Origin: Elusimicrobiota bacterium | GTDB lineage: Bacteria; Elusimicrobiota; Elusimicrobia; UBA1565 | Length of the DNA: 64,000 nucleotides | Assembly: GCA_016196755.1 (NCBI GenBank) | Contig: JACPXC010000039.1 | Coordinates: 10,645-74,644, forward strand | Direction: 5' to 3' | Part shown: in pieces, positions 39,447 through 54,009 of the stretch | Layout: every line of letters begins with the position of its first letter | How positions within the stretch are numbered: position 1 is the stretch's first letter | Program-made: the position numbers and the translations under genes | Notes under the pieces: generated by a model | What the model was told of the DNA's origin: nothing | The model's input: the letters and a program-made list of their open reading frames with translations, nothing else | Databases searched by the model: none

Positions 39447-39469
39447 AGAGCCGGTCCGAGCTATGCAAA

Positions 39470-39805
39470 TTTACGCGCCTCGGGCGCGTGGATCGAAGAG
39501 TTGCGATACGGCCGCAACTCTTCGATCTCGTACGGATCAACGGAAAAACGGAAGACGATTGGGCGAGTCGTGTGCACGCTTCGCGCACGGTCCAAATGAT
39601 GAAAAAAACGTCGACTATCCACGTGGATAGTTCGGTGGATATCTTTCCGAATCAACCTGTGATTTCGTTCTGGAACGGCGTAAATCCGTGCGCGAAGCGT
39701 GCACACAGGCGGGCCAATCCTACTGCTCTTTGCCGTTCATTGCTCCAGATCGAAGGATTGCGGCCGTATCGCAATCCTTCGATCCACGCGCCCGAAGCGC
39801 GTAAA
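39470..39805. repeat. Low-GC, triply nested palindromic element (MITE-like, inverton-like or composite operator)
   Basis: Outer 58-nt inverted repeats 39470-39527 and 39748-39805 (53/58 identical). Inner perfect 21-nt inverted repeats 39570-39590 and 39686-39706. Central perfect 16-nt palindrome CTATCCACGTGGATAG at 39615-39630. Confidence 0.85.
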
Positions 39806-39944
39806 CTAACTTCTGGAGCCGTTTCAGAAGCCTACCCACACCTTCGTGCCATGAGCCAAGCTCATCTCCGCGAATTCTTTGCGAACCTAATTTCGCAAGA
39901 GTTCGCAGCCGCTACCTACACTTTTCGCGAAACGTCCGTTACAC

Positions 39945-39977: not shown

Positions 39978-42900
39978 ATGCGCACGAACAGCCCAAGGAT
40001 CTCCCCGAGCGCGCGGAGCCTGCTCGGCGCCCTCATCCTCTCGCTCGCCCTGCCGCGCGAGCTCCATGCCGACACCGCGGTCAAGACCGCCGTCGACGCC
40101 GCCTCCGTCAGCGGCGGGGCCGACTGGACCAACCCCGCCAACGTCCAAGGCGACGACGGCGCCTATGCCGATTTCAACGCCACCAGCCAGAGCTATCTGA
40201 CCATCAAGACCTTCGGCTTCTCCCTGCCGGTCGGCGCCACCGTCGACGGCGTCCAGGTGGTCGTCAACGGCCAAGGGGCCGGCGGAACCAACGCGCGAAG
40301 ACGCTTCCGGGCGGGCCTGACCAAGGACGGCGCCAATCTGGCGGGCACCGAGATGACGGCGCTGACCTTCCTCCAGGACGTGGATTCGGACATCACGACC
40401 GGCGGAGCCACCGACCTGTGGGGCACGACCTTGACCCGCGCGGAGGTCAACAGCGCGGACTTCGGGATCCTGATCCGGGACCAGAACACAACCGCCGATC
40501 TCCTGCGCTTCGACCATGCGACGGTGACCGTCTTCTACACCCCGGCCTCGCAGGCCACCGCGACCCCGACCGACGTAGCGCCCGCCGGCCTCGACCAAGG
40601 CGCCGAATCCGCCTTCGAGAAACTCTCGCTGGTCACCGACCAGGGGAACGCGGAATGGACGGCGGTCAAGGTGACCAAATCCGGGACCTTGGCCGACTCC
40701 GGCGTCACCTCGGTGAAGATATACCTCGACAACGGCAACGGCGTCTACGGCGGCGAGGACACCCTCATCTCCCCCGCCGTCACCGTCTTCGCGGGCGGCG
40801 TCGCCAACATCACGCTTTCGGCCGCGCAGACGCTTACGGCGACGGCCAAGGTCTACTTCGTCGTCTATGACCTCGAACCCTCGGCGGCGCCGGGCGCCAC
40901 GATCGGAGCCTCCATCGCCTCGCAGGCGGACCTCACGATCACCTCGCCCGACACCATCTCCTCGGCGAACTTCCCGGCGAACTCCGCCAACGCCACGGTG
41001 GGCGACGTGGCGGACACCGTCACGATGACGCCCACCGACCAGGCGCCCGGAAGCGCCGCGCAGGGGGCAGAGTTCGCGCTGGAGAGGCTGTCCTTGGTTA
41101 CCAACGCCGAGACCGCCTTGTGGACCGCCATCAAGGTCACCAAGGGAGGGACGCTCGGCGACGGCTACGTGACGACGGTCAAGATCTACGAGGACACCAG
41201 CGGCGACGGCTTCTACGGAGGCGGAGACACCCTCATCTCGCCGTCGGTCAACACGTTCACGTCCGGCTCGGTGACGATCACCCTGTCGGCGCCGCAGACC
41301 ATCACCACCAGCGCGAAGGCCTACTTCATCGTCTGCCAAATCGCGAGCGACGCCACGGTGGGTGCTACCATCGGCGCGCAGGCGGCGGCCGACACGGACC
41401 TCACCCTGAGCGCGCCGGACGCCGTGTCGGCGGCGAACTTCCCGGCCGCCTCCGCGAACACCGCCATCACCGACGTCGCCGACACGATCACGCTCACGCC
41501 CACCGACCTCGCCCCGGCGGACATCGTCCAGGGCTCGGACTACGCGGTGGAGAAGCTCTCGCTGGCGACCGGCGGCGACGCGGCCGTCTGGACGGCGGTC
41601 ACGGTGACCAAGACGGGCGATCTGGCCGACGGCGACGTCGCCTCCGTCAAGCTCTATCTCGACACCGGCAACGGCGTCTACGGCGCCGAGGACACTCTCC
41701 TGGCCAACGGCGCCTTCTCGGGCGGGGCCGCCGCGCTCAGCCTCTCTCCGGCCCAGACCATCACGACCTCCGCCCAGGTTTACTTCATCGTCTACGTCCT
41801 GACCTCCGGCGCCGCGCCGGGCGACACCATCGGCGCTCAACTCACGAACAACGCCAGCCTGACGGTGAGCGCCCCGGACACCGTCGCGACGACCAACTTC
41901 CCCGTCAACTCGTCAAATTCCACGGTCCTCCTTCAAGGCGACGAGATCACCGTCACGCCGACGGACCAGGCCCCCGGCAGCGTAAGCCAGGGGGCGGAGT
42001 TCGCCTTGCTCCGGCTCTCGATGGCGACCGACGCCAACACCGCGGAATGGACCGCGCTCAACGTGACCAAAGGCGGGACGGTGCCCGACGCGGGCATCGC
42101 GACGGTCAAGATCTACCTCGACGACGGCGACGGCGTCTACGACGCCGGCGACACCCTCATCTCCCCCGCCGTGACCGCGTTCTCGGGGGGCGCGGCGGCC
42201 GTCACGTTGACCGCCGCCCAGACCATCACCACCACCCCCAAGGTCTACTTCATCGTCTACGACCTCGAGAGCGACGCCTCCGCGGGCACGACCGTCGGGG
42301 CCTCGGTCGCGTCCAACAGCCAGCTGACCGTGACGACACCCGACACGGCGGCAAGCGCCAACCTGCCCGCGAACTCGGCCAACGCGACCATAAACGACGT
42401 GGCCGACACCGTGACCGTGACCCCGACCGACGCAGCACCGGCGAACATCGCCCAAGGCTCGGACTTCGCCCTGCTCAAGCTCTCGCTGGCGGCCGACGAC
42501 GACCAGGCGACCTGGACCAACCTGACCGTGACCAAGACCGGCGACCTGGCCGACGGCCAGGTCACCACGGTCAAGGTGTATCTAGACGACGGAGACGGGA
42601 CTTACGACGCCGGGGACACGCTGATCTCGCCGGCGGTCAACACGTTCACCGCCGGCGTGGTGAGCATCGCGATCTCGGCCTCCCAGGCGATCACGCCGGC
42701 GGCCAAGGTGTACTTCGTAGTCTACGCCTTGGAGGCGCTCGCCGCCGTCGGCGGCACCATAGGCGCGCGCGTGGCGGCCGCCGGCGACGTGACGGTCACG
42801 GGCGTGGACGGAGTCTCGGCGGCGAACCTTCCGGCGAACTCGACGGTCGCGAGCGTGGTCGACGGGGCCGACACCGCCACGGTGACCCCGACCGACCAGG

Positions 42901-45900
42901 CGCCCGCCAACATCGCGCAGGACGCCGACTACTCGGTGCTGAGGCTCTCGCTGGCCATGGACCAGGAGACCGCGCAGTGGACGGCTATCACGGTGACCAA
43001 GACGGGGACCGCGGCCGACGCCGCCGTCGATTCCATCAAAATCTACCTCGACGACGGCGACGCCGTCTACGACGCCGGCGACACGCTCATCTCGGCGGCG
43101 GTGACGCCCTTCTCGGGCGGCTCGGCCGCGATCACCCTGACGGCGGCGCAGACGCTGACGACGAGCGCCAAGGTATACTTCGTCGTCTACGACCTCGACC
43201 CCGAGGCGGCGGCGGGCGACACGATCGGAGGCTCGGTCGGCGCGGCCTCGGCGCTGACGCTGAGCGCCCCGGACGCGGTCTCCTCGGCGAACCTCCCGGC
43301 CGACTCGACGGATTCCTCGATCACCGAGCTTGCGGACACCATCACCGTCACGCCGACCGACATCGCTCCCGCCTTCGCGGTCCGCGGCCAGGAGACAGCT
43401 CTTCTCAAGCTCTCTCTGGCCACCCCCGCCGACTCGGCCTTATGGACCGTGCTGGCCCTGACGAAACTCGGGAGCCTGGGCAATGCCAGGATCACCGCCA
43501 TCAGGGTCTATCTCGATGACGGCGACGGGCTCTACGGCGTGGGCGACTCGCTCTTGGGCAGCGGGACCTACGGCGGCGGCGGGACCGTCGCCCTGTCTCC
43601 GGCCCAGACCATCAACGCTGCCCCGAAGGTGTACTTCGTCGTGTACCTGCTGGCGATCGGTTCCCCCCTGGGCGCCACCACGGGCGTCCGGGTCGCCGCG
43701 AACACCGAGCTGACGGTGACCGCACCCGACCTCGTCAGCGCCGCGAACTTCCCCGCCGACTCGTCCTTGGCCACCGTCGCCGATCCCCCCGCCCTGGTGA
43801 CGGTGACCCCGACCGACCTGGCCCCCGCCAACGTGAACCAGGGCGCCGACTACGCGGCGCTGAGATTGGCCATGGCGACCGGGGGCAACTCGGCCACCTG
43901 GTCGGCGCTCACGGTGACCAAGACCGGGACTCTCGCCGACGGCTCGATCACCACGGTCAAGATCTACCTCGACGACGGCGACGCCGTCTACGACGCCGGC
44001 GACACCCTCATCTCGCCGCCCGTGACGACCTTCTCGGGCGGGGCCGCCGCCATCACCCTGAGCGCGGCCCAGACCCTCTCCACCACGAGCCAGGACTATT
44101 TCGTCGTCTACACCTTGACCGCCACGGCTCTCCCCGGCGCGACGCTCGGGGCCGAGCTCACCGCCAACACCGACCTCACGCTGGACTTAAACAACACCGT
44201 CGCTGCGACCAACTTCCCGATCAACTCGACGAACTCGACGGTGGTCGACGTCGCCGACACGATCACCGTCACGCCGCTCGATCAGGCTCCGGCCGACGTC
44301 GCCCAGGGCGCCGACTTCGCGCTGCAGCGCTGGTCGATCGCCGCCGGGGGCGACCAGGCGCTGTGGACGGCGCTCACGGTGACCAAGACCGGCACGCTCG
44401 CCGACGGCTCGATCACGACGGTGAAGATATACCTCGACGACGGCGACGCCGGCTACGACGCCGGCGACACGCTCATCTCACCGCCGGTCACTACCTTTTC
44501 CGGAGGCTCGGCCGCCATCACGCTGAGCGCGGCTCAGACGCTCACCACCTCGGCGAAGGTCTACTTCATCGTCTATCAGCTCGCCGCCGACGCGACCGTG
44601 GGCGGCACGGTCGGCGCCCAGGTCGCGGCGAACACCGACGTGACGGTGACGGCTCCCGACCTCGTGGCCGCGGCCAATTTCCCGGCCGACTCGACCGACT
44701 CGAACGTGACCGACGTGGCCGACACGATCACGCTCACGCCCACCGACCTCGCTCCGGCCAACGTCGTGCAGGGCGACGAGTACGCGGTGGAGAAGCTCTC
44801 CTTGGCGACCGGCGGCGACCAAGCGAGCTGGACCGCGATCACGGTCACCAAGACCGGCTCCAGCCCGGACGGCGACGTGGACACGGTGAAGGTGTACCTC
44901 GACAACGGCAACGGGACCTGGGGCGGCGAGGACACCCTGGTCTCGCCCCCGGTCAACACCTTCTCGGCCGGCGCGGCCGCGATCACGCTGTCGGCGGCCC
45001 AGACGATCAACACCACGGCCAAGGTCTATTTCATCATCTACAAGGTCAACCTCTCCGCCGCGTTCCCGAACACCCTCGGCGCGGAGGTGACCGCCGACAC
45101 CGACCTCACGGTGAGCGCTCCGGACCTCGTCAGCGCGGCCAATTTCCCGGTCAACTCCGCCAACTCCAACGTCCTGGAGCGCGGCGACCAGATCACCGTG
45201 ACGCCGACGGACCTGGCGCCGGGCAGCGTCGCTCAGGACTCGGACTTCGCCCTGCTCCGGCTCTCGATGGTCACCGACGTGAACTCCGCCCAGTGGACGG
45301 CCGTCAACGTCGCCAAAGCCGGCGACCTCGCCGACGCCAAGGTCAGCTCCGTGAAGATCTACCTCGACGACGGCGACAACGGTTATGACGGCGGCGACAC
45401 CTTGATCTCCCCGGGGGTCACGACGTTCTCGGCGGGCGCGGCGGCCATCACGCTGACGGCGGCCCAGACCATCGGCACGCCCCCCAAGGTATATTTCGTG
45501 GTCTACGACCTGGCCAGCGACGCCCCGGTGGGAGACACCATCGGGGCGAGCATCGCCTCCAAGAACGAGCTGACCATCACGGTGCCCGACGTCGTGGTCG
45601 ACGTGAACTTCCCGGCCGACTCGACGAACTCACCCCTCACCGACATCGCCGACACCGTCACCGTCACGCCGACCGACCTCGCCCCGGCGAGCATCGCCCA
45701 GGCCTCGGACTTCGCCCTGCTCAAACTCTCGCTGGCAACCAACGAGGACGCGGCGACCTGGACAAACCTCACGGTGACCAAGACCGGCGACCTGGCCGAC
45801 GGTGACGTGAGCGCGGTCAAGGTCTACTTCGACGACGGCGACGGGAGCTACGACGGCGGGGACACCCTGGTCTCGTCGGGACTCGACACGTTCACGGCGG

Positions 45901-47912
45901 GAACGGCGGACATCGCCCTCTCGGCCGCGCAGACCATCACGCCGAGCGCCAAGACGTACTTCGTGGTCTATACCTTGGAGGCGCTCGCCGCCGTCGGCGA
46001 CACGATCGGCGCCCAGGTCGCGGCCGCCGGGGACCTGACCGTCTCGGGCGTGGACGTCGTCTCGGCGTCGAACTTCCCGGCGGACTCGACCGACTCCAGC
46101 GTGATCGACGGGGCGGACACCGTCACCGTGACTCCCACCGACCAGGCGCCGGGGAGCATCGCGCAGGACGCGGACTACTCGGCGCTGCGGCTCTCGATGC
46201 TCACCAACCAGGAAACCGCGCTGTGGACCGCGCTCACGGTGACCAAGACCGGGACCGCCGCCGACGCGGCGGTCGACTCCGTGAAGGTCTATATCGACGA
46301 CGGCGACAACGGCTACGACGCAGGCGACACCCTCATCTCGCCGGCGGTGACGACGTTCTCGGGCGGCTCGGCGGCGATCACGCTGTCGGCGGCGCAGACG
46401 CTGACGACCACGGCCAAGGTCTACTTCGTGGTCTATGACCTCGACCCGGAGGCCGTCGTCGGCGCCACCATCGGCGCCTCCCTGGGCGCGGCGTCGGCGC
46501 TGACGGTCAGCGCCCCGGACGCGGTCTCCTCGGCCAATTTCCCGGCCGATTCGACGAACTCCGGCGTCACCGACGTCGCCGACACGATCACGGTGACCCC
46601 CACCGACACCGCCCCCGCCAACATCGGGCAGGGCGAGACCTATTCCCCGCTCAAGCTCTCGATGGCTACCGCGGTGGACCAGGCGGTCTGGACCGCGCTC
46701 ACCGTCACCAAGCTCGGAAACCTCGCCGACGGCCAGATCACCACGGTCCGGGTCTACCTGGACGACGGCGATGGGACTTACGACGCCGGCGACACCTTGG
46801 TCTCGCCGCTGACGAGCACCTTCGCCGGGGGCTCGGTCGCGATCACCCTGTCGGCGGCCCAGACGATCGGCACCACCCCCAAGGCCTACTTCATCGTCTA
46901 CATCCTCGCCGCCGCCGCCCCGGTCGGCAACACGATCGGCGCCCGGGTGACGAACAACGCCAGCCTGAGCGTCACCGCCCCGGACACGGTGTCCGCCGCG
47001 AACTTCCCCGCGGATTCCGCTCTCTCCAGCGTGATCCTGGCCAGCGTGGTCACCGTATCCCGCGCCAACCTCGCTCCGGCCGAGATCGGCCAGGGCTCGG
47101 ACTTCGCGCTCGAGAGCCTCTCGGTGCTCACCGACGCGGAGACCGCGGTCTGGACCGACGTCAGGCTGACCAGGCTGGGAAATCTGGCGGCGGCCGACAT
47201 CACGGCGGTGAGGATCTACCTCGACGACGGCAACGGAGTCTACGGCCCGGAGGACACCCAGCTAGCCACCGGAAAATTCGGGATCCTGACCTTGAGTCCC
47301 GCCCAGACCATCACGACCTCGCCCACGCTTTACTTCGTGGTCTACGTCCTGCCGGGCGCGGCGCCGATCGGGGACACCACCGGCGCCAGCCTCACCCAGG
47401 CGAACTTCACCGTCACGGGCCCCGACACCGTCGCGGGGACGAATTTCCCCCTCGACTCGACGCTGGCCACCGTGGCGGCGCGCGAGCTCGCCGTCGTCTT
47501 GTCGGAGACCCTCATCGAGGCCGGCGACCTCGCTGTCAACGGCGAGTACGTCATCACGACCAACGTGACCGCCGTCAACAACGGCAACGGCCCCCAGACC
47601 TACGACCTCAAAGCCCAGCCGATCACCGGCGGCACGCCGTGGGCTCTGGGCGCGGCGCCCGACTTCGACGTCTTCACCCTGCGGGCGGTGGCCGGCGCCG
47701 CCGAGCCGCCGCTCGGGGATTTCGGCGCCGAGGACGCGCTGAGCGGAGCCGGGGAGCTGTGCACGAGCACCGTCTTCGCGCGCGGCACGGCGCGCTGCGA
47801 CAAGCAGGCCGCCGGCGCCAGCACGGTCCTCTGGCTGAAGGTCGGGATGCCGACCATCACCAGCACCGAGGCCGTGCAGGACATCCAGGTCACGGTGACC
47901 GCCAATCCATGA
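39978..47912 (+). CDS. Giant (2644 aa) secreted protein with 15 tandem ~154-aa repeats
   Basis: Signal peptide MRTNSPRISPSARSLLGALILSLALPRELHA. A ~165-aa N-terminal domain (..WTNPANVQGDDGAYADF..). Fifteen units of the pattern PTDxAP..QG..FA..LSL.T....WT...VTKTG.LADG.V..VKIYLDDGDG.YD.GDTLIS....F.GG.A.ITLSAAQT....KVYF.VY.L......G.TIGA......LT...PD.V...NFP..S. A ~150-aa C-terminal domain. No T9SS CTD. Confidence 0.9.
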   Translation: MRTNSPRISPSARSLLGALILSLALPRELHADTAVKTAVDAASVSGGADWTNPANVQGDDGAYADFNATSQSYLTIKTFGFSLPVGATVDGVQVVVNGQGAGGTNARRRFRAGLTKDGANLAGTEMTALTFLQDVDSDITTGGATDLWGTTLTRAEVNSADFGILIRDQNTTADLLRFDHATVTVFYTPASQATATPTDVAPAGLDQGAESAFEKLSLVTDQGNAEWTAVKVTKSGTLADSGVTSVKIYLDNGNGVYGGEDTLISPAVTVFAGGVANITLSAAQTLTATAKVYFVVYDLEPSAAPGATIGASIASQADLTITSPDTISSANFPANSANATVGDVADTVTMTPTDQAPGSAAQGAEFALERLSLVTNAETALWTAIKVTKGGTLGDGYVTTVKIYEDTSGDGFYGGGDTLISPSVNTFTSGSVTITLSAPQTITTSAKAYFIVCQIASDATVGATIGAQAAADTDLTLSAPDAVSAANFPAASANTAITDVADTITLTPTDLAPADIVQGSDYAVEKLSLATGGDAAVWTAVTVTKTGDLADGDVASVKLYLDTGNGVYGAEDTLLANGAFSGGAAALSLSPAQTITTSAQVYFIVYVLTSGAAPGDTIGAQLTNNASLTVSAPDTVATTNFPVNSSNSTVLLQGDEITVTPTDQAPGSVSQGAEFALLRLSMATDANTAEWTALNVTKGGTVPDAGIATVKIYLDDGDGVYDAGDTLISPAVTAFSGGAAAVTLTAAQTITTTPKVYFIVYDLESDASAGTTVGASVASNSQLTVTTPDTAASANLPANSANATINDVADTVTVTPTDAAPANIAQGSDFALLKLSLAADDDQATWTNLTVTKTGDLADGQVTTVKVYLDDGDGTYDAGDTLISPAVNTFTAGVVSIAISASQAITPAAKVYFVVYALEALAAVGGTIGARVAAAGDVTVTGVDGVSAANLPANSTVASVVDGADTATVTPTDQAPANIAQDADYSVLRLSLAMDQETAQWTAITVTKTGTAADAAVDSIKIYLDDGDAVYDAGDTLISAAVTPFSGGSAAITLTAAQTLTTSAKVYFVVYDLDPEAAAGDTIGGSVGAASALTLSAPDAVSSANLPADSTDSSITELADTITVTPTDIAPAFAVRGQETALLKLSLATPADSALWTVLALTKLGSLGNARITAIRVYLDDGDGLYGVGDSLLGSGTYGGGGTVALSPAQTINAAPKVYFVVYLLAIGSPLGATTGVRVAANTELTVTAPDLVSAANFPADSSLATVADPPALVTVTPTDLAPANVNQGADYAALRLAMATGGNSATWSALTVTKTGTLADGSITTVKIYLDDGDAVYDAGDTLISPPVTTFSGGAAAITLSAAQTLSTTSQDYFVVYTLTATALPGATLGAELTANTDLTLDLNNTVAATNFPINSTNSTVVDVADTITVTPLDQAPADVAQGADFALQRWSIAAGGDQALWTALTVTKTGTLADGSITTVKIYLDDGDAGYDAGDTLISPPVTTFSGGSAAITLSAAQTLTTSAKVYFIVYQLAADATVGGTVGAQVAANTDVTVTAPDLVAAANFPADSTDSNVTDVADTITLTPTDLAPANVVQGDEYAVEKLSLATGGDQASWTAITVTKTGSSPDGDVDTVKVYLDNGNGTWGGEDTLVSPPVNTFSAGAAAITLSAAQTINTTAKVYFIIYKVNLSAAFPNTLGAEVTADTDLTVSAPDLVSAANFPVNSANSNVLERGDQITVTPTDLAPGSVAQDSDFALLRLSMVTDVNSAQWTAVNVAKAGDLADAKVSSVKIYLDDGDNGYDGGDTLISPGVTTFSAGAAAITLTAAQTIGTPPKVYFVVYDLASDAPVGDTIGASIASKNELTITVPDVVVDVNFPADSTNSPLTDIADTVTVTPTDLAPASIAQASDFALLKLSLATNEDAATWTNLTVTKTGDLADGDVSAVKVYFDDGDGSYDGGDTLVSSGLDTFTAGTADIALSAAQTITPSAKTYFVVYTLEALAAVGDTIGAQVAAAGDLTVSGVDVVSASNFPADSTDSSVIDGADTVTVTPTDQAPGSIAQDADYSALRLSMLTNQETALWTALTVTKTGTAADAAVDSVKVYIDDGDNGYDAGDTLISPAVTTFSGGSAAITLSAAQTLTTTAKVYFVVYDLDPEAVVGATIGASLGAASALTVSAPDAVSSANFPADSTNSGVTDVADTITVTPTDTAPANIGQGETYSPLKLSMATAVDQAVWTALTVTKLGNLADGQITTVRVYLDDGDGTYDAGDTLVSPLTSTFAGGSVAITLSAAQTIGTTPKAYFIVYILAAAAPVGNTIGARVTNNASLSVTAPDTVSAANFPADSALSSVILASVVTVSRANLAPAEIGQGSDFALESLSVLTDAETAVWTDVRLTRLGNLAAADITAVRIYLDDGNGVYGPEDTQLATGKFGILTLSPAQTITTSPTLYFVVYVLPGAAPIGDTTGASLTQANFTVTGPDTVAGTNFPLDSTLATVAARELAVVLSETLIEAGDLAVNGEYVITTNVTAVNNGNGPQTYDLKAQPITGGTPWALGAAPDFDVFTLRAVAGAAEPPLGDFGAEDALSGAGELCTSTVFARGTARCDKQAAGASTVLWLKVGMPTITSTEAVQDIQVTVTANP
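40566..47498 (+). repeat. Coding tandem-repeat array: 15 units, organised as a duplicated 7-unit super-repeat plus one
   Basis: Unit 1 starts at 40566 (aa 197), unit 8 at 43809 (aa 1278), unit 15 at 47061 (aa 2362). Units 3-7 resemble units 10-14 far more than they resemble their neighbours. Confidence 0.8.
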
Positions 47913-48736
47913 CCAGGGCGCTCACGCTCCTCGCCGCCGTCCTGCTAGGCGCCGCCCCGGCGGGGGCGCAGATCGGCCTGGCGACCAGCTTCGTCGAGGT
48001 CTCCATCGACGGGCTCGAGCCGGGGCGCGTCCACGGGCTGGCCGATTTCTCCGAGCTCGAGTACCCGGTCCGCAATCTCGGCGGGAAGGCCGTGGAGGCG
48101 CTCCTCAAGGCCGAGCGTCCGGCCCGGGCCGCGCCTTTCTACGAGCCCATACCCGATCCCGCCTGGATCCGCTTCTCATCGGCCGCGCTCAAGCTCCAGC
48201 CCGGCGCCTCGGCTTCCGCCGAGGTGCTGATAGCGCTCCCGGACGACCCCCGCCTCTTTGGCAGGCACTTCGAGGCCTCCATCTGGGCGCGCACCCGGGG
48301 CGCCGGCGGCCTCGCCGCGGGAGTGAGGAGCCGCCTGAGATTCTCCGTCGGCCCACCTCCCGGCGCGCCGGAGGAGCGCGCGCCCCGGAGCCTGGCATGC
48401 CTGCTCGGGCCGGAAGACGTCCACGTAAGGCGCGCCAAGCCGGCCCACCGCCTTTCTCTCAGAGTCGCCAGCCGCGAGAGCCTTCCGCTCGAGCTCCTCG
48501 TGCGCGCCTTCCCGGCGCCGAAGGTCCCACGCGGCTTCCAGCCCGTCGAGCCTTCGGCGTGGGTCATATTCAAGCCGGCTCGCCTAAGGCTCGCCCCGAA
48601 GGGCTCGGCGGTCCTCGAGCTAGAATGGGCCGCTCCTGCGGAGCTCCGCGGCAGGCGGGTCGCCTTTGCGCTGCGCGCCGAGGCCTCCGACGGCCGCGCC
48701 TGCCCGACGCGCAGGGTCTTCCTCGACTTGGAGTAG
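47909..48736 (+). CDS. Secreted hypothetical protein, translationally coupled to giant gene 2
   Basis: Track ORF 47639-48736 trimmed to ATG 47909 (ATGA overlap with the giant-gene stop). MTRALTLLAAVLLGAAPAGAQ is a signal peptide. Two similar halves (PAWIRFSSAALKLQPGASASAEVLIALPDD and SAWVIFKPARLRLAPKGSAVLELEWAAPAE) suggest two beta-sandwich domains. Confidence 0.65.
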   Translation: MTRALTLLAAVLLGAAPAGAQIGLATSFVEVSIDGLEPGRVHGLADFSELEYPVRNLGGKAVEALLKAERPARAAPFYEPIPDPAWIRFSSAALKLQPGASASAEVLIALPDDPRLFGRHFEASIWARTRGAGGLAAGVRSRLRFSVGPPPGAPEERAPRSLACLLGPEDVHVRRAKPAHRLSLRVASRESLPLELLVRAFPAPKVPRGFQPVEPSAWVIFKPARLRLAPKGSAVLELEWAAPAELRGRRVAFALRAEASDGRACPTRRVFLDLE

Positions 48737-48769
48737 CATTTGGTATCGTCGCGGGGAGAAGGAGGAGAC

Positions 48770-49453
48770 ATGCCCGGCTGCCTTTCCGTCGTCGTCCCGG
48801 TCTACAACGAGGCGGCCGCCCTGCCCGGCCTGCTCGAGACCCTGCGGCGCCAGGCCCCGGACGCCGAACTGGTCGTAGCCGACGCCGGCTCGCTGGACGG
48901 CACGCAGGCCGCCGCGCGGGAAGGCGCCGATGTACTCGTGAAGTGCGTGAAGCCCGGCCGCGCCTTCCAGCTCGACTGCGGCCTGCGCGCGTCCTCGGGG
49001 GCCGTCGTCCTCTTCCTCCACGCCGACACCGTCCTGCCCGACGGCTGGCCGGCCCTCGTCGCCGACGCCTTCGCCGCCCTGCCCACGCCGGCGGCCAGCT
49101 CGTTTCGCCTAGCCTTCGACAGCCCGCGGCCGTTCTATCGCGTCCTCGAGCGCGCGGCCGCCCTGCGCCAGGCCGTCACGGGGGTCCCGCACGGCGACCA
49201 GGCCGTCGCCGTCCTGCGCGAGGCCTATCTGGCCTGCGGAGGCTTTCCGGTGGTCCCGCTCATGGAGGAGTACGAGCTGGCCCGGAGGCTCAGGTCCCAG
49301 GGCCGCTTCGTCACGCTCGAGGCCGCGGCGACGACCTCGGTGCGCCGCTACGAGAGGGACGGGCCGCTCAAGCGCGCGTTGGGAAACTCCGCCCGTGTGG
49401 CGCTCTGGTACCTCGGCGTCTCGCCCGAACGCCTGGCGCGGGGCTACCGGTGA
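48770..49453 (+). CDS. Family-2 glycosyltransferase, TIGR04283-like
   Basis: Track ORF 48740-49453 trimmed to ATG 48770 (GGAGGA at 48761). LSVVVPVYNEAAALPGLL, LFLHADTVLP, PHGDQAVAV, LMEEYELARRL and TSVRRYERDG fit my memory of that family. Confidence 0.7.
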   Translation: MPGCLSVVVPVYNEAAALPGLLETLRRQAPDAELVVADAGSLDGTQAAAREGADVLVKCVKPGRAFQLDCGLRASSGAVVLFLHADTVLPDGWPALVADAFAALPTPAASSFRLAFDSPRPFYRVLERAAALRQAVTGVPHGDQAVAVLREAYLACGGFPVVPLMEEYELARRLRSQGRFVTLEAAATTSVRRYERDGPLKRALGNSARVALWYLGVSPERLARGYR

Positions 49454-50106
49454 AGAGCGTGCTCGTCTTCGCGAAGGCCCCCGTGCCCGGAGCGGTGAAG
49501 ACGCGTCTGACCCCGCCGTTCTCGGCCGAGCAGGCCGCCGGCCTCTATCGGGCCATGGCCGCCGACTGCTTGGGGGCGGCCGAAGCGGTCCCGGGGGCGC
49601 GGGTCAGAGTGGCCTATCAGCCCGCGCCGACCTGGCCGGACCCGTCATGGCTGAAGATCCCGGCCCCGGACTGGTTCCCGCAGGCGGGGGCCGACCTCGG
49701 ACGCCGCTTGGCCGCGGCCACGGAAAAGGCCTTCGTCGACGGCGCCGAGCGCGTCGTCGTCATCGGAACGGACTCCCCCCAGCTCGCCCCGGCCACGATC
49801 GAAGAGGCCTTCGCCCGTCTGGCCGCCGCGCCGCTGGTCCTGGGCCCCGCCGCCGACGGCGGCTACTACCTCATCGGCCTGCGCGAGCCGGCCCCGAGCT
49901 TGTTCGATGACGTCCCTTGGTCCACCGCGGGAGTCCTCAAAGCCACTCAGCAGCGGGCCGCCGAGCTGCATTGGCCCGTCCATCTGCTCGATGAGCTCGA
50001 GGACGTCGATGACGCCCCCTCCCTGGCCCGCATGCTGGCCGCCGTGAAAGGCGCCCCGCTGGCCCTGCGTACCCAGACGGCCATCGCCGACCTCACCCGG
50101 CGCTGA
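49450..50106 (+). CDS. DUF2064 / TIGR04282-like putative transferase
   Basis: Part of track ORF 48397-50106, from GTG 49450 (GTGA overlap). VLVFAKAPVPGAVKTRLTPP, VVVIGTDSPQL, LGPAADGGYYLIGL, VPWSTAGV, LEDVDD. Confidence 0.7.
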   Translation: MKSVLVFAKAPVPGAVKTRLTPPFSAEQAAGLYRAMAADCLGAAEAVPGARVRVAYQPAPTWPDPSWLKIPAPDWFPQAGADLGRRLAAATEKAFVDGAERVVVIGTDSPQLAPATIEEAFARLAAAPLVLGPAADGGYYLIGLREPAPSLFDDVPWSTAGVLKATQQRAAELHWPVHLLDELEDVDDAPSLARMLAAVKGAPLALRTQTAIADLTRR

Positions 50107-50107
50107 A

Positions 50108-51307
50108 TCAGGTTCCAGAAAACAGGTCGGCGGGGTCGGCGAGGAAGAATTCCTCGAGGGGCATCCCCCCGGGTCCGACGATGAACGGCCGGGCTTCAGG
50201 CCATAGCCGCTTGAACGCCCTCAGGCCGGCGCCGTCGCCGGGAGCGGCGCCCGACTTGACCTCGATGGCCCACAGAGCCCGCGGAGTCTTCACCACGAAG
50301 TCCACCTCGCGGTCCCGCTCGCGCCAATAATAGACCTGACTGGTCGTGGGGTCGAGCGCCCCCAGGAGATGCCCTCCCACTGCGTTCTCCACCAAGCGGC
50401 CGCGCCAAGCCGGGTCGCGCAGCGCGCGCTCACGCGGCTCCCCCAGATACGCCGTCACGAGGGCGTTGTTGCGAAAGACCAGCTTCGGGCTGCCGGCGCG
50501 CTTGCGGCCGCGCCCGGCTTTGTATAGGTCGAGCCCGCCCACGAGGAACGCCGAGTCCAACAGGTGGAGGTAATGCGCCAGGGTCGTCGTATTGCCGGCG
50601 TCCTGGAGTTGTCCGAGCATCTTGTTGTAGGAGAGGATCTCGGCAGGGTGCGAGACGGCGAGTCCGAAAAGATGGCGCAGCAAGGCGGGCTTCGCCACCG
50701 CCGCCAATTGGAGGACGTCGCGCGAAAGGACGGTCTCTATGAGCGAGTCCGTGATGTAGCGGCGCCAGGACGCCTCGTCCGCCTTTAAGACCGCCGCGCC
50801 GGGATAGCCTCCGAAATACAGCCAGTCTTCCAGGTCCCAGCCGAAGGCTTCGCGCATCTCGCCCAACGACCAATGGCCGCATTGATAAGAGAGGAAGCGG
50901 CCGGCCATGCTCTCCGCGAGGCCTTTCTGGATGAGAAGGCTCGATGAGCCCAGGAGCAGTACCCGGATGGCGCGGCTTTCCCGCCTGGCGCGATCCCAAA
51001 GCAGTTTGATCGTCTCGCTCCAGCCGGACACCTTTTGAATCTCATCGAGCACGAGAAGGACGCGGCCATCGCGCCCTCCTCGGGCCAACGCTAATTCCCA
51101 CTGGGCATGGATCCATTCCGGGCCGGGAGGCAACGGGGCGTCGGCCGCCGCGAAGACGGTCTCGCCCTTCCAGGTCCGGCAGATTTGCTGGGCTGCCGTC
51201 GTCTTTCCGACTTGCCGTGGTCCGGTGATGATATGAAGGAAGGGTAATTCCGTCGCTAATGCTTCCTCTATTTTCGCGACGAGGGGGTGCTTGTAAATAT
51301 TACTCAT
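50108..51307 (-). CDS. AAA-family ATPase with DUF4143-type C-terminal domain (paralog 1)
   Basis: Track ORF 50108-51346 trimmed to ATG 51307 (MSNIYKHPLV). Walker A ITGPRQVGKTT and Walker B LLVLDEIQKV. C-terminal EVDFVV...AIEVKSG is nuclease-fold-like. Confidence 0.8.
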   Translation of the reverse strand: MSNIYKHPLVAKIEEALATELPFLHIITGPRQVGKTTAAQQICRTWKGETVFAAADAPLPPGPEWIHAQWELALARGGRDGRVLLVLDEIQKVSGWSETIKLLWDRARRESRAIRVLLLGSSSLLIQKGLAESMAGRFLSYQCGHWSLGEMREAFGWDLEDWLYFGGYPGAAVLKADEASWRRYITDSLIETVLSRDVLQLAAVAKPALLRHLFGLAVSHPAEILSYNKMLGQLQDAGNTTTLAHYLHLLDSAFLVGGLDLYKAGRGRKRAGSPKLVFRNNALVTAYLGEPRERALRDPAWRGRLVENAVGGHLLGALDPTTSQVYYWRERDREVDFVVKTPRALWAIEVKSGAAPGDGAGLRAFKRLWPEARPFIVGPGGMPLEEFFLADPADLFSGT

Positions 51308-51346
51308 TGGTTGAGTAATTATACTCAACGATTGAGTAAAATGCAA
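51300..51346 (-). promoter_or_regulatory. Promoter of ATPase-1 overlapped by four alternating TGAGTAA half-sites
   Basis: Minus strand: TTGCAT (51346-51341), 17 nt, TATAAT (51323-51318), 10 nt, ATG. Half-sites at 51300-06 (rc), 51312-18, 51322-28 (rc) and 51333-39, about 10.5 bp apart. Confidence 0.6.
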
Positions 51347-51358
51347 TAGGCCAGAACG

Positions 51359-51766
51359 TCAGGGCAGGATGTGAAAGCCGGCGCAGTGGGCCGGCCGGAA
51401 GCTGGAGAAGTGCCGTCTATCCAGCGTCGCCAGACGAACCAGCTTGAGGCGCTCTGCCGTAGCGATGACGGCCGCGTCCACCATCCCCAGGTCGGGACGC
51501 CGGCGCGCGACCTCGATGATCCGCCCCAAGTCCCGCGGCTCGCTCCAGGCCACGGTCAGCTCGCCGGCCGCGAGGCTCTCAAGGAAGCTCAACTCCGCGG
51601 CGGCTCCGAGGAACTTGTTGGCGAGGTAGCACACCTCCGGGAGGACAGGCGAAGGGACGATGAAAGGGCCGCGCTCCCGGCCCAGCACCGCGCGCGCGGC
51701 GCGGTGGTGCGGATCGTCGCGGTCGAGAAGGGCGACCAGGAATCCCGTGTCCGTCAGGACGGCCAT
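51359..51766 (-). CDS. vapC: PIN-domain toxin (VapC-like), second copy
   Basis: MAVLTDTGFLVALLDRDDPHH is a PIN N-terminus. 1-nt overlap with the antitoxin stop. Confidence 0.8.
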   Translation of the reverse strand: MAVLTDTGFLVALLDRDDPHHRAARAVLGRERGPFIVPSPVLPEVCYLANKFLGAAAELSFLESLAAGELTVAWSEPRDLGRIIEVARRRPDLGMVDAAVIATAERLKLVRLATLDRRHFSSFRPAHCAGFHILP

Positions 51767-52002
51767 CAGCGCCGTCGGCCGCGGTCGAAGAGCAGGTCCT
51801 CGGAGCGCTCCGAGAGGCGCAGCTTCCCGCCGCTCGAGCCGGCCCCGACGAAGGACGGTTCCCCGGCCTTCGGCGAGTGCCGCGCGACGAATTCCGCCAG
51901 CGCGAGGCGGACGACTTCCGAGAACGAGACCCCCGTCCTCTGGGCCAGCGCCTTGAGTTGGAGGAGGAGGGAATCCTCGGCGACCACCGTGGTCCTTGTC
52001 AT
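51766..52002 (-). CDS. Ribbon-helix-helix (CopG-like) antitoxin
   Basis: MTRTTVVAEDSLLLQLKALAQRTGVSFSEVVRLALAEFV is an RHH pattern. Upstream partner of the PIN gene. Confidence 0.75.
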   Translation of the reverse strand: MTRTTVVAEDSLLLQLKALAQRTGVSFSEVVRLALAEFVARHSPKAGEPSFVGAGSSGGKLRLSERSEDLLFDRGRRR

Positions 52003-52008
52003 AATATG

Positions 52009-52037
52009 ATTATGACATATGAAGCAAGGCTCGTCAA
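52009..52037 (-). promoter_or_regulatory. Promoter of VapB-2, leaderless geometry
   Basis: Minus strand: TTGACG (52037-52032), 17 nt, CATAAT (52014-52009), CATATT, ATG (52002). The ATATG..CATAT inverted repeat spans the -10. Confidence 0.65.
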
Positions 52038-52062: not shown

Positions 52063-52326
52063 TCAGCGATCGAGTAAATCGTGAAAGAGGCTGTTCTGAA
52101 ACGCAGCGAGCCTGACCGGCGCCGGCTCGGCCGCCCGACGAGCCGCACGCGCGATAGCGCGCAACTGCCGCTCAAGGAAACGACAGGACGGGCAGATCAG
52201 CAGGTGCAGCCGTGCCAGGAGCCACGAAACCCCCGGACTTTCGAAGTCCCCCTCCGCCCGGCGGCGGGCGAAAGCGCGGCAGTCGAACATCGGCCTCACC
52301 GGGTCCCCCAACGCTTCTCCAGGCAC
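52063..52326 (-). CDS. Short zf-HC2-type anti-sigma factor (no obvious TM segment)
   Basis: H-x3-C-x2-C (LHLLICPSCRF) directly downstream of the ECF sigma gene. ATG 52290 (MFDCRAF) is an alternative start that removes the overlap. Confidence 0.55.
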   Translation of the reverse strand: MPGEALGDPVRPMFDCRAFARRRAEGDFESPGVSWLLARLHLLICPSCRFLERQLRAIARAARRAAEPAPVRLAAFQNSLFHDLLDR

Positions 52327-52862
52327 TCGCGCAGACGGTGTCGGGCACGGAAGAGCAGGACCCTCAGGTTAGTGTCGGAGACTTCCAAGACGTTACGGAT
52401 CTCCTCCGGCTCCAAGCCCTCGACCTCCTTGAGCTGGAAGGCCGCCCTCTGCGCCTCGGGAAGTTCCCCGAGGCAGGCCTTGATGTGCCCCTCGGTCTCG
52501 GACGCCGCGGCCTCTTCGTCTGGCCCCTTAGGGGGCTTGGCCCAATGCCCGTCGCCCGAAAAGCGCCGCTCGAACACTTCGTCGACGGGGTCGGTAGCGA
52601 CCTCGCGGGCGCGCAGCCGGCCGCGTTCCTTGGCCTTGAGGTACAGGATGCCGAAGAGATAGGTCCGGACCGAGGAGCGCCCCTCGAACCGGTCGAGCCC
52701 CGCCAGGAAGGCAGCGAAGGCCTCCTGCGCCAGGTCCTCGGCCTCGCCTTCGCCGAGCCCCAGAGCCATGGCCCCGCGCAGGAGCGGGCCGGAATTCTCG
52801 CGGACCACGGCCTCCAAGGCCTCCCGCTTCCGGGCACGCAGGTCGGCCAGAGAAGGCTCCAC
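52296..52862 (-). CDS. ECF-type RNA polymerase sigma factor
   Basis: Region 2 (DLAQEAFAAFL...) and region 4 (LPEAQRAAFQLKEVEGLEPEEIRNVLEVSDTNLRVLLFRARHRLRECL). GTG start 52862-52860 lies 6 nt after TAGAAT (52874-52869). Confidence 0.85.
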   Translation of the reverse strand: MEPSLADLRARKREALEAVVRENSGPLLRGAMALGLGEGEAEDLAQEAFAAFLAGLDRFEGRSSVRTYLFGILYLKAKERGRLRAREVATDPVDEVFERRFSGDGHWAKPPKGPDEEAAASETEGHIKACLGELPEAQRAAFQLKEVEGLEPEEIRNVLEVSDTNLRVLLFRARHRLRECLEKRWGTR

Positions 52863-52892
52863 TCGGGTATTCTAGCTGACCCCGCCCGGGCA

Positions 52893-52921
52893 TTGACAGC
52901 ACGGCGGGGGACCCCTACACT
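52893..52921 (+). promoter_or_regulatory. Promoter of the REC-OmpR-MotA-MotB operon, leaderless geometry
   Basis: TTGACA (52893-52898), 17 nt, TACACT (52916-52921), TAGCGC, GTG 52928. Confidence 0.65.
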
Positions 52922-52927
52922 TAGCGC

Positions 52928-53305
52928 GTGAGCACCAAGGTCTTGGTCGTTGACGACGACGAGGAATACCGGGGCATCGTGGTCGGGGCCCTCAAGACCG
53001 GGGGCTTCGAGACCGTCGAGGCCGACTGCATGGCCCAAGGGCTCGAGGTCTACCGCAAGGAGCGCCCCGAGGCCGTGGTCCTCGACGGCCAGCTCCCCGA
53101 CGGCGACGGCTTCGCCCTCTGCGCCATCCTGCGCAAGGAACCGGGCGGCGAGAAGCTGCCCGTCCTGCTCTGCACGATCCGCGGCTCCTTCGAGGAGGTC
53201 GTGGCCGGCCTCTCGGCGGGGCCCGACGACTACGTGGTCAAGCCCTTCGACGACCACGAGCTGCTGGCGCGCCTGCGCTCCGCGATCGACGCCCGCAAGA
53301 CATGA
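52928..53305 (+). CDS. Stand-alone receiver-domain response regulator (CheY-like)
   Basis: KVLVVDDDEEYR, AVVLDGQLPDGDG and YVVKPF receiver motifs. 125 aa, no output domain. Confidence 0.9.
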   Translation: MSTKVLVVDDDEEYRGIVVGALKTGGFETVEADCMAQGLEVYRKERPEAVVLDGQLPDGDGFALCAILRKEPGGEKLPVLLCTIRGSFEEVVAGLSAGPDDYVVKPFDDHELLARLRSAIDARKT

Positions 53306-54009
53306 AGGGGGCCCGCGTGGCCGTCGTCGAGGACGAACCGGGCTGGCTCGAGCTCCTCGAGCGCTCCTTGGGCGCGGCCGGCTTCGACGTGGCGGGCTTC
53401 GCGTCCCCCCTCAAGTTCCTCAAGTCCATGGCCACCGAGGTCCCCGAGGCCGCCGTCGTCGACATGCTCCTGCCCGGGATGGACGGACGCGAGGTCATCC
53501 GAGTCCTGCGCCGCGAGCCGCGCACGCGTCTGATCCCCATCGTGGCGATGACCGCCTCCGAGGTCTCCCCCAACTCGGCGGTCTCCGGCATCACGGCCGG
53601 CGCCGACGAGTATTTCCGCAAGCCCTTCGAGCCCGAGCTGCTCGTCGTCCGTCTCCAGGGGCTGCTCCAGCGCCGCCTCGGCGAGCCCGCGCCGTCCCCC
53701 GAGGCCGGCCTCCAGGACGACGGCATCTCGCTTTCTTTCGACAGCCGGGCCTGCACGGTGGACGGGAAGGGCCACGAGCTGACCCGGCTCGAGTTCGAAC
53801 TGCTCACCCATTTCCTGGGCCAGCCGGGCCGCGTCTACACCCGCCGCCACCTGCTGGACGCCTTCTGGCCCGGGCGCGTCCACAGCGACGGCCGCTCGCT
53901 CGACAAGCACGTCCAGCGCCTGCGCAAGGTCCTCGGCCGGCATTCCGACCGCCTGCAGACGGTCTACGCGGTCGGCTATGTCTGGCGCTTGAACGGAGGG
54001 ATGAAGTGA
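53302..54009 (+). CDS. OmpR-family response regulator
   Basis: VAVVEDEPG, AAVVDMLLPGMDG and YFRKPF motifs. Winged-helix output (LTRLEFELLTHFLGQPGRVYTRRHLLD...VGYVW). ATGA overlap with the upstream gene. Confidence 0.9.
   Translation: MKGARVAVVEDEPGWLELLERSLGAAGFDVAGFASPLKFLKSMATEVPEAAVVDMLLPGMDGREVIRVLRREPRTRLIPIVAMTASEVSPNSAVSGITAGADEYFRKPFEPELLVVRLQGLLQRRLGEPAPSPEAGLQDDGISLSFDSRACTVDGKGHELTRLEFELLTHFLGQPGRVYTRRHLLDAFWPGRVHSDGRSLDKHVQRLRKVLGRHSDRLQTVYAVGYVWRLNGGMK

Follow-up and report, generated by a model that had tools for sequence, protein, structure and literature searches.

The giant gene and its product

A 64,000-nt stretch of an Elusimicrobiota bacterium contig (GenBank assembly GCA_016196755.1, contig JACPXC010000039.1, positions 10,645–74,644), called the window here, carries a giant gene on the forward strand at 39978–47912, stop codon included. 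The reading frame is open and encodes a protein of 2644 amino acids (aa), P0001, made of a signal peptide, an N-terminal domain, 15 tandem repeat units and a C-terminal domain. Comparison with orthologues indicates that the array grew by one duplication of a seven-unit block, and profile comparison places the C-terminal domain in one homologous family with small secreted proteins of Elusimicrobiota.

All parts are given in forward-strand coordinates. Residues 1–31 (39978–40070) are, by inspection, a Sec-type signal peptide with a basic n-region, an LLGALILSLAL core and an LHA|DT end; orthologues have equivalent N-termini. Cleavage is predicted after LHA. There is no lipobox, and the signal peptide has no Cys, so P0001 is not a lipoprotein. 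The N-terminal "head" domain (aa ~32–195; 40071–40562), delimited in alignment A3, is beta-rich by sequence. Repeat block 1 holds units 1–7 (aa 196–1276; 40563–43805), and repeat block 2, its paralogous copy, holds units 8–14 (aa 1277–2360; 43806–47057). Unit 15 (aa 2361–2508; 47058–47501) closes the array; it is divergent and the orthologue of unit 8 in 8-unit relatives. The C-terminal domain (aa 2498–2644; 47469–47909), putatively pilin-like, was defined with alignment A2, hhalign, a hidden Markov model (HMM), AlphaFold2 (AF2) and Foldseek; it is 147 aa long with two conserved Cys residues (2595 and 2607).

Mature P0001 is 262 kDa with an isoelectric point (pI) of 4.05, and its composition is dominated by Ala (16.5%), Thr (14.2%), Val (9.6%) and Asp (8.8%), with three Cys and one His. 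The GC content at third codon positions (GC3) of the gene is 0.94, the highest among the surrounding long open reading frames (ORFs). An earlier note on this DNA, made from the letters alone, had described a signal peptide, an N-terminal domain of ~165 aa and a Thr/Ala/Val/Asp-rich protein, and this description is accurate in all essentials. P0001 as a whole, each unit and the N- and C-terminal domains gave nothing above threshold when scanned against Pfam and NCBIfam. These scans found in P0001 no known surface-anchor family (LPXTG, outer-membrane barrel, C-terminal sorting domain [CTD] of the type IX secretion system [T9SS] and similar), no domain known to anchor S-layers or to form their lattice, such as SLH, and no T9SS tail (Por_Secre_tail, TIGR04183-type or CHU_C).

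Repeat array and assembly check

The array was delimited with the recurring TPTDxAP string as anchor, and an HMM was then built from the units. The HMM detects exactly 15 contiguous copies at aa 196–2507, each scoring 188–244 bits, and no further copy in six frames of the window. Units are 148–156 aa long and abut head-to-tail with no linkers. They start at aa 196, 351, 507, 660, 815, 970, 1125, 1277, 1432, 1587, 1742, 1897, 2052, 2207 and 2361, so that units 1–7 span 1081 aa and units 8–14 span 1084 aa. Identity at the amino acid level is 66% for units 2/9, 65% for 3/10, 66% for 4/11, 75% for 5/12, 81% for 6/13 and 56% for 7/14, and these pairs are the row maxima of the identity matrix, well over the values for neighboring units. 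The exceptions to this pairing are units 1 and 8, which are 56% identical and not row-best; unit 8 is closest to unit 9 (70%). The two 3.25-kb blocks are 73% identical at the DNA level, rising to 83% across units 5–6/12–13, and the longest exact run common to both is 35 nt.

The earlier note had reported 15 tandem units with a seven-unit super-repeat, and the HMM count and the 56–81% identity of units seven apart agree with it. Its unit register is the same, shifted by one residue. The strings that it quoted, LLQGDEITV/LERGDQITV and TWTNLTVTKTGDLADG..EALAAVG, are present, and the identity matrix confirms that units 3–7 are closest to units 10–14 and not to their neighbors.

Assembly was checked with short-read metagenome contigs (Logan). 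In two groundwater samples of one study, contigs cover the gene from end to end with 0 differences, and their depth is flat along it, at 12–16 and 9–11, equal to that of the unique flanks. The suspicion that the true repeat gene is shorter, and that the 15 units come from mis-assembly or miscounting, draws on the array being a tandem repeat assembled from a short-read metagenome, and on Logan contigs that break within it, including at 41483–41507 and 44723–44747, the site of the 35-nt exact run between blocks. However, any two units are at least 17% different in DNA sequence, every piece is at the single-copy depth of the flanks in both samples, and two other metagenomes yield independent 15-unit orthologues (2644 and 2654 aa) that correspond position by position. 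Given 73% block identity, a longest run of 35 nt and flat single-copy depth, collapse or mis-joining is very unlikely, and we consider an artefactual array scarcely credible. Collapse was the objection that the earlier note had itself raised; the contigs, with 0 differences and single-copy depth, speak for its array. Contig joints at 39807>43234 and 44029>47761 have sides of only 20–23 nt and were dismissed as repeat noise.

Orthologues and history of the duplication

The 15-unit orthologues P0002 and P0003 come from the independent metagenomes mentioned above. A larger orthologue group has 8 units in ~1531–1576 aa and includes proteins of NCBI metagenome-assembled genomes labeled Elusimicrobia. 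The two groups differ by exactly seven units. When units of P0001 and P0002 are compared, the best match lies at the same position in 11 of 15 cases, including units 8, 10, 11 and 14 of block 2. In a unit tree, units 1, 4, 7, 11 and 15 cluster by position across all three 15-unit proteins, and units 8 and 10 do so only for P0001 and P0002. Units 3, 7 and 8 of the 8-unit proteins join units 3/10, 7/14 and 15, respectively, of the 15-unit proteins. Sister pairs specific to one lineage are units 5 and 12 of P0001 and units 3 and 10 of P0003; units 6 and 13 of P0001 fall in one unresolved clade that includes unit 6 of P0002.

The positional matches, the tree grouping and the seven-unit length gap together indicate that the block duplication is old. 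By these sequence comparisons, the seven-unit block was duplicated once, before the 15-unit lineages (~60% amino acid identity) split, and lengthened the stalk from 8 to 15 beads. The high identity of units 5/12 and 6/13 is most likely the result of gene conversion between the two blocks at a later time. Growth by duplication of a ~3.25-kb block, as the earlier note proposed, is borne out by orthologues with 8 or 15 units. The block is probably no source of current copy-number variation, for which that note had proposed a check: the duplication appears ancient, with the 11 of 15 positional matches to P0002 spread over both blocks, and nothing in the sequences suggests variation today. The array is a clear example of a stalk that lengthened through one apparently ancient duplication of a seven-domain block, probably followed by gene conversion.

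Fold and family of the repeat unit

AF2 modeling of one unit, with the 15-unit alignment as input, predicts a beta-sandwich with a predicted local distance difference test score (pLDDT) of 91 and a predicted template modeling score of 0.86, consistent with the beta-sandwich beads that the earlier note envisaged. The best Foldseek matches of the model in the PDB are N-terminal modules of Bacteroidota GH33 sialidases, with template modeling scores normalized to the query (TMq) of 0.55–0.62 and probability 1.0: BDI_2946 (4fj6), BTSA (4bbw), NanH (7qy9, 7qxo) and Sialidase26 (6mrx), and also 6mnj. The E values of these matches are only ~2e-3 and identities are 7–14%. The module of NanH is CBM93, a carbohydrate-binding module equivalent to PF14873 (PMC9472817). 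PF14873 matches one of the 15 units marginally (E 0.026, below the Pfam gathering threshold) and does not match whole P0001; sub-threshold matches recur in several relatives of the unit family. On its predicted structure, the unit is a distant relative of CBM93 and, by Pfam criteria, not a member. It differs from CBM93 (BNR_assoc_N), its best structural match, in being repeated 15 times as a stalk, in having no attached glycosidase and in its Asp-rich loop. A search of the unit profile against PDB sequences gave one match, of a loop to 6-phosphogluconate dehydrogenase, which is due to chance.

An acidic loop of the form Y-[LIFE]-D-D/N/T-G-D/N-x-x-Y/W-x-x-x-D/E-T/S is present in 15 of 15 units. 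It reads DDGD in 10; the other five read DNGNG (twice), DTGNG, DDGNG and DTSGDG. The earlier note had placed a YLDDGDGxYDxGDTLIS string in every unit, which is right for the loop and too strict for its letters. The same note had compared the loop with DxDxDG calcium-binding loops. The D-A-N-A-N-G-T-Y-E loop of the orthologues fits the D-x-[DN]-x-[DN]-G spacing, but the window loops (D-D-G-D-G-x-Y-D-x-G-D) are two residues shorter and fit it only loosely. The Asp/Asn-rich loop probably binds Ca2+. Weak, loop-only matches of the 8-unit orthologues to GEVED and DUF7282 were also found. GEVED (PF20009) belongs to CshA-type adhesins (PMC10952558). On P0005 and P0007 its score is a sum with 0 passing stretches, covering profile positions 2–47 of 78, and P0001 has no match. 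The likeness lies in the Y-L-D-A-N-A-N-G-T-Y-E loop of the 8-unit orthologues, and both are stalk-associated adhesin modules; the difference is that the loop motif alone is matched, with no single stretch above threshold and none in the window protein.

No Pfam or NCBIfam model describes the unit, in line with the earlier note, which had not recognized the repeat family. Among 1.84 billion cluster representatives, the unit profile detects 1174 proteins at E ≤ 1e-3, of which 209 reach E ≤ 1e-30. With 1–26 copies each and lengths of up to ~7000 aa, these are mostly giant Elusimicrobiota proteins; the named representatives that were looked up are all from Elusimicrobia/Elusimicrobiota and annotated "hypothetical", "FG-GAP-like" or "VCBS". 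In a Pfam scan of 14 members, seven end in FlgD_ig or Por_Secre_tail tails, and others have FG-GAP, NHL or fn3 parts, with propellers also serving as heads. Because seven of the 14 have surface-sorting tails, the unit is, from these architectures, a common and uncatalogued surface-stalk module. This delimits a large unannotated stalk-domain family of at least 1174 protein clusters that could enter domain databases.

N- and C-terminal domains

Among 197 protein sequences, the N-terminal domain is confined to the P0001 orthogroup. Comparison of the N- and C-terminal domains with the unit, and of the C-terminal domain with the 275-aa protein encoded next to P0001 (the partner, below), gave no relationship by hhalign. 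Profiles of both end domains, the partner and the small-protein family described here returned nothing meaningful from PDB sequences. P0017 (1421 aa) was considered as proof that the N-terminal domain is optional and was rejected; its first residues are the end of that domain, and the gene call is truncated.

The C-terminal domain aligns over its full length with secreted proteins of ~220 aa encoded in orthologous loci (alignment A4). The two share the motifs GV.V, GN..Q, W.ID.DE..D..Q.YALF, P.E.DFGS, LWLR.D.P..S and Q..VT.TA. By hhalign the domain matches the small proteins at E 2.8e-6 and 2.3e-5, and an HMM built solely from giant C-terminal domains detects 13 of 13 small proteins in the 197 sequences at E 5e-9 to 3e-6. 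These profile matches establish the domain as homologous to the small secreted family, a link that is new here. The family is found in Elusimicrobiota only, and all its members are annotated "hypothetical".

The AF2 model of the C-terminal domain has a pLDDT of 93. About 20 of its top 50 Foldseek matches are chaperone-usher pilin entries (FimG, the PapG pilin domain, FimF, PapE, PapA, CfaB and CsuA/B), of which FimG, the PapG pilin domain, PapE and CfaB match at E 2e-3 or weaker with TM 0.39–0.47. The TasA fiber (8aur, TMq 0.51) and an archaeal bundling pilin (7ueg, 0.43) are also matched. As modeled, the domain is of the Ig/jelly-roll type, and its closest, though weak, likeness is to donor-strand pilins. 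The final ~150 aa, which the earlier note called unique, is instead a domain common to the giant and the small secreted proteins, with a pilin-like predicted fold. Por_Secre_tail and CHU_C match none of 10 orthologous C-terminal domains, even at E up to 10, and with the scans of P0001 this upholds the remark that a T9SS-type sorting domain is lacking. The further step, export by a route other than T9SS, is not supported beyond the lack of a recognizable CTD. In the 8-unit orthologue P0011 (L007, 12208–12732) the true C-terminal domain lies in another reading frame and the called protein ends in Arg-rich nonsense, which indicates a frameshift or sequencing error in that contig.

Gene neighborhood

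Immediately downstream, a forward gene at 47909–48736 overlaps the giant gene by ATGA and is translationally coupled to it. It encodes the secreted partner of 275 aa with two beta-rich halves, 44% identical to the product of the gene after P0002. The partner family is tiny. Of the three 15-unit loci that were read, it is present in two, those of P0001 and P0002; no copy lies next to P0003 (L006) or the 8-unit genes, and the partner has no Pfam or PDB match, PapD family included. Two further forward genes follow, for a GT2 glycosyltransferase (48740–49453; PF00535, E 1.6e-16) and a DUF2064 protein (49450–50106; PF09837, E 2.7e-33). The latter lies in ORF 48397–50106, with an approximate start and its domain at ~49579–49926.

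Four independent orthologous loci (L001, L002/L003, L005 and L007) share a syntenic slot with the order PriA, (TMEM260_N/TPR), TyrRS, FecR, MCM, OmpR-type response regulator and giant gene. On the 3′ side of the giant gene are 1–3 Wzy_C genes and then at least 1–3 small paralogues of the C-terminal domain; several contigs end there. Wzy_C genes lie directly 3′ in the 8-unit loci L001 (14706–16487), L005 (14670–16433) and L007 (12771–18096), and in L001 and L005 they overlap the end of the giant gene; in their place, the window has the GT2 and DUF2064 genes. Locus L004 (7782–13152) has seven tandem small paralogues of ~220 aa each and no giant gene. The same OmpR-type regulator lies upstream, in a shorter version of the slot that lacks FecR and MCM, and the array is followed by genes for a 1368-aa fn3 protein, a CHU_C-like protein, a PorP_SprF/TPR barrel and a histidine kinase.

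A tblastn search of the window with the orthologous Wzy_C, TMEM260-like, FecR and MCM genes found none. Two adjacent forward response-regulator ORFs (52925–53305 and 53302–54009) lie just upstream of a MotA-like gene. The product of the second shares 36% identity with the OmpR-type regulator encoded directly before the giant gene in orthologous loci. ORFs at 51371–52009 and 52212–52931 were considered as small subunits and rejected as Arg-rich shadow frames.

Comparison with known systems

Elusimicrobiota are almost entirely uncultivated, and to our knowledge nothing is known of their cell surface. Fibrillar adhesins, as outlined by Monzon et al. (10.1101/2020.12.07.414375), combine an adhesive domain, a tandem stalk and an anchor. 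P0001 resembles this outline in its signal peptide, its distinct domain at each end and its long tandem beta-sandwich stalk, and the acidic, calcium-type loop in each repeat is like those of many stalk domains. It differs in that its stalk, head and tail belong to no catalogued stalk, adhesive or anchor family and in having no LPXTG motif, autotransporter barrel, type I secretion signal or T9SS CTD. P0001 fits the architecture but is not a strict member: no recognized anchor was found in it, and its head matches no recognized adhesive domain.

The chaperone-usher tip adhesins FimH and PapG are similar in three respects. The predicted C-terminal domain is Ig-like, with FimG and the PapG pilin domain among its best PDB neighbors; just as pilin domains have homologues among pilus subunits, this domain has homologues among small free-standing secreted proteins whose genes are near the giant gene in orthologous loci; and a coupled two-domain secreted partner is encoded at the window locus. 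The differences are the lack of an usher or PapD-family match, the weak TM-scores of 0.42–0.47 and the 15-bead stalk between head and tail of P0001. TasA fibers and archaeal bundling pili have the highest TM-scores among the pilus or fiber subunits matched by the C-terminal domain, and the tandem small paralogues are of similar subunit size. They differ in that no TasA/camelysin sequence or Pfam match was found, and neither a SipW-type signal peptidase nor a TapA-like gene was observed. SprB-type T9SS adhesins of Bacteroidota are likewise giant and repetitive; the window region has PorV/PorP-like barrels, and relatives of the unit are T9SS-tailed. Unlike them, P0001 has no detectable CTD, and its repeat family and C-terminal domain are different.

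Interpretation

We give an even chance to the reading of P0001 as a fibrillar adhesin-like surface fiber anchored via its pilin-like tail. P0001 would be exported by Sec and displayed on the cell surface, with the N-terminal domain as a distal head that binds a target. The 15-bead rod would project this head by ~60–75 nm if each bead measures 4–5 nm, and the acidic loops may bind Ca2+ along the stalk. By analogy with the pilin domain of FimH and PapG, the C-terminal domain would attach the giant protein to a polymer or surface layer that the small subunits form or also belong to. O-glycosylation of the Thr/Ser-rich protein is plausible because a Wzy_C gene lies directly downstream in orthologous loci and a GT2 gene is present at the window locus. 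Wzy_C is the family of PglL/PilO pilin O-oligosaccharyltransferases and of O-antigen ligases. The adhesin-like architecture proposed in the earlier note agrees with the distinct end domains and the tandem beta-sandwich stalk.

Several observations weigh against this surface-fiber reading. Surface location, Ca2+ binding, glycosylation and polymerization are inferred, and the sequencing runs found are of groundwater DNA only. The N-terminal domain has no PDB sequence or Pfam match and is no known adhesive domain. The Foldseek matches of the C-terminal domain are weak (best E 2.2e-3, TMq 0.42–0.51) and include generic Ig-like folds (MSP, Cep192 and SdrD), and TasA/camelysin (Peptidase_M73) has no Pfam match in the C-terminal domains or small paralogues. 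No small C-terminal-domain paralogue, nor another partner copy, was found elsewhere in the 64-kb window, and with no small paralogue near the giant gene the partner polymer is putative for this genome. The 15-unit gene in L006 also has another context, with no small paralogue near it. No usher was found among the neighboring ORFs scanned, in a window scan that was non-exhaustive, and no PapD-family match among the genes scanned.

A more far-reaching proposal is that P0001 belongs to an undescribed Elusimicrobiota fiber system. Tandem pilin-like subunits of ~190 aa when mature would polymerize by strand exchange, as in TasA or chaperone-usher fibers, with the 8- and 15-bead giants as adhesive arms, OmpR-type control and O-glycosylation by Wzy_C proteins; no usher or known assembly machine would take part. 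We regard this as possible but doubtful. By sequence homology, the tail does link the giant to another family that lacks annotation, whose members are small, secreted, encoded in tandem duplicates and putatively pilin-like. If that link reflects co-assembly, the system would represent a new kind of surface fiber in bacteria; if it does not, P0001 is one more giant adhesin-like metagenome protein.

The earlier note had also offered an S-layer-like role, and an S-layer or sheath, in which the giant, alone or with small C-terminal-domain-like proteins, covers the cell in a two-dimensional lattice, seems unlikely. The composition is typical of such proteins (pI 4.05, rich in Thr, Ala, Val and Asp, almost no Cys), the GC3 of the gene could mean high expression, glycosylation-type genes are close by, and the tandem small secreted paralogues could be lattice subunits. 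However, the compositional argument is non-specific, P0001 matches neither SLH nor any other domain known for S-layer anchoring or lattice formation, and 15 abutting beads with distinct end domains form a stalk architecture, unlike known lattice formers. The unit elsewhere bears propeller, FG-GAP or NHL heads and T9SS tails, and nothing specific points to an S-layer. We consider it similarly improbable that the 15 CBM93-like units are lectin modules of a multivalent scaffold that captures polysaccharide, extracellular polymeric substances or glycosylated partners. The best structural matches of the unit are to CBM93, a carbohydrate-binding module (PMC9472817), and family members have sub-threshold PF14873 matches, but in P0001 a single unit of 15 has such a match, and a marginal one (E 0.026), and identity to the sialidase modules is 7–14%. 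Conservation within the unit lies in core residues and the acidic loop, as expected of a structural bead. Less probable again is a mobile or anchored SprB-type, T9SS-dependent adhesin whose C-terminal domain is an unrecognized sorting or attachment domain for the regional PorV/PorP-like barrels. Other proteins of the unit family do end in T9SS tails, and genes for a CHU_C-like protein and a PorP_SprF/TPR barrel lie downstream of the small-paralogue array of L004. Against this stand the searches of P0001 and the 10 orthologous domains for Por_Secre_tail and CHU_C, without a match at E up to 10, and structural neighbors that are pilins and not CTDs. At 147 aa, and existing also as a free-standing secreted family, the domain is unlike T9SS CTDs, which are removed on export.

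Other features of the locus

An AAA_14/DUF4143 ATPase gene (50108–51346, reverse strand) lies head-on to the end of the giant operon, at the break in synteny with the orthologous loci. A gene for an extracytoplasmic function-type sigma factor (52296–52871, reverse strand) adjoins the response-regulator ORFs. The divergent neighboring gene is also giant and encodes DUF4082, Kelch and deacetylase domains. Upstream of the P0001 gene is a palindromic element with inverted-repeat arms of ~59 nt (39468–39515 and 39732–39805). In the two groundwater runs the summed contig depth on the arms is 230–520, against 9–12 on the unique flanks, and many contigs leave the palindrome at 39805–39807 into different sequences; within the 64-kb window the arm occurs only here. 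It looks like a highly repeated short palindrome of the community or genome, similar to repetitive extragenic palindromic (REP) sequences or miniature inverted-repeat transposable elements (MITEs).

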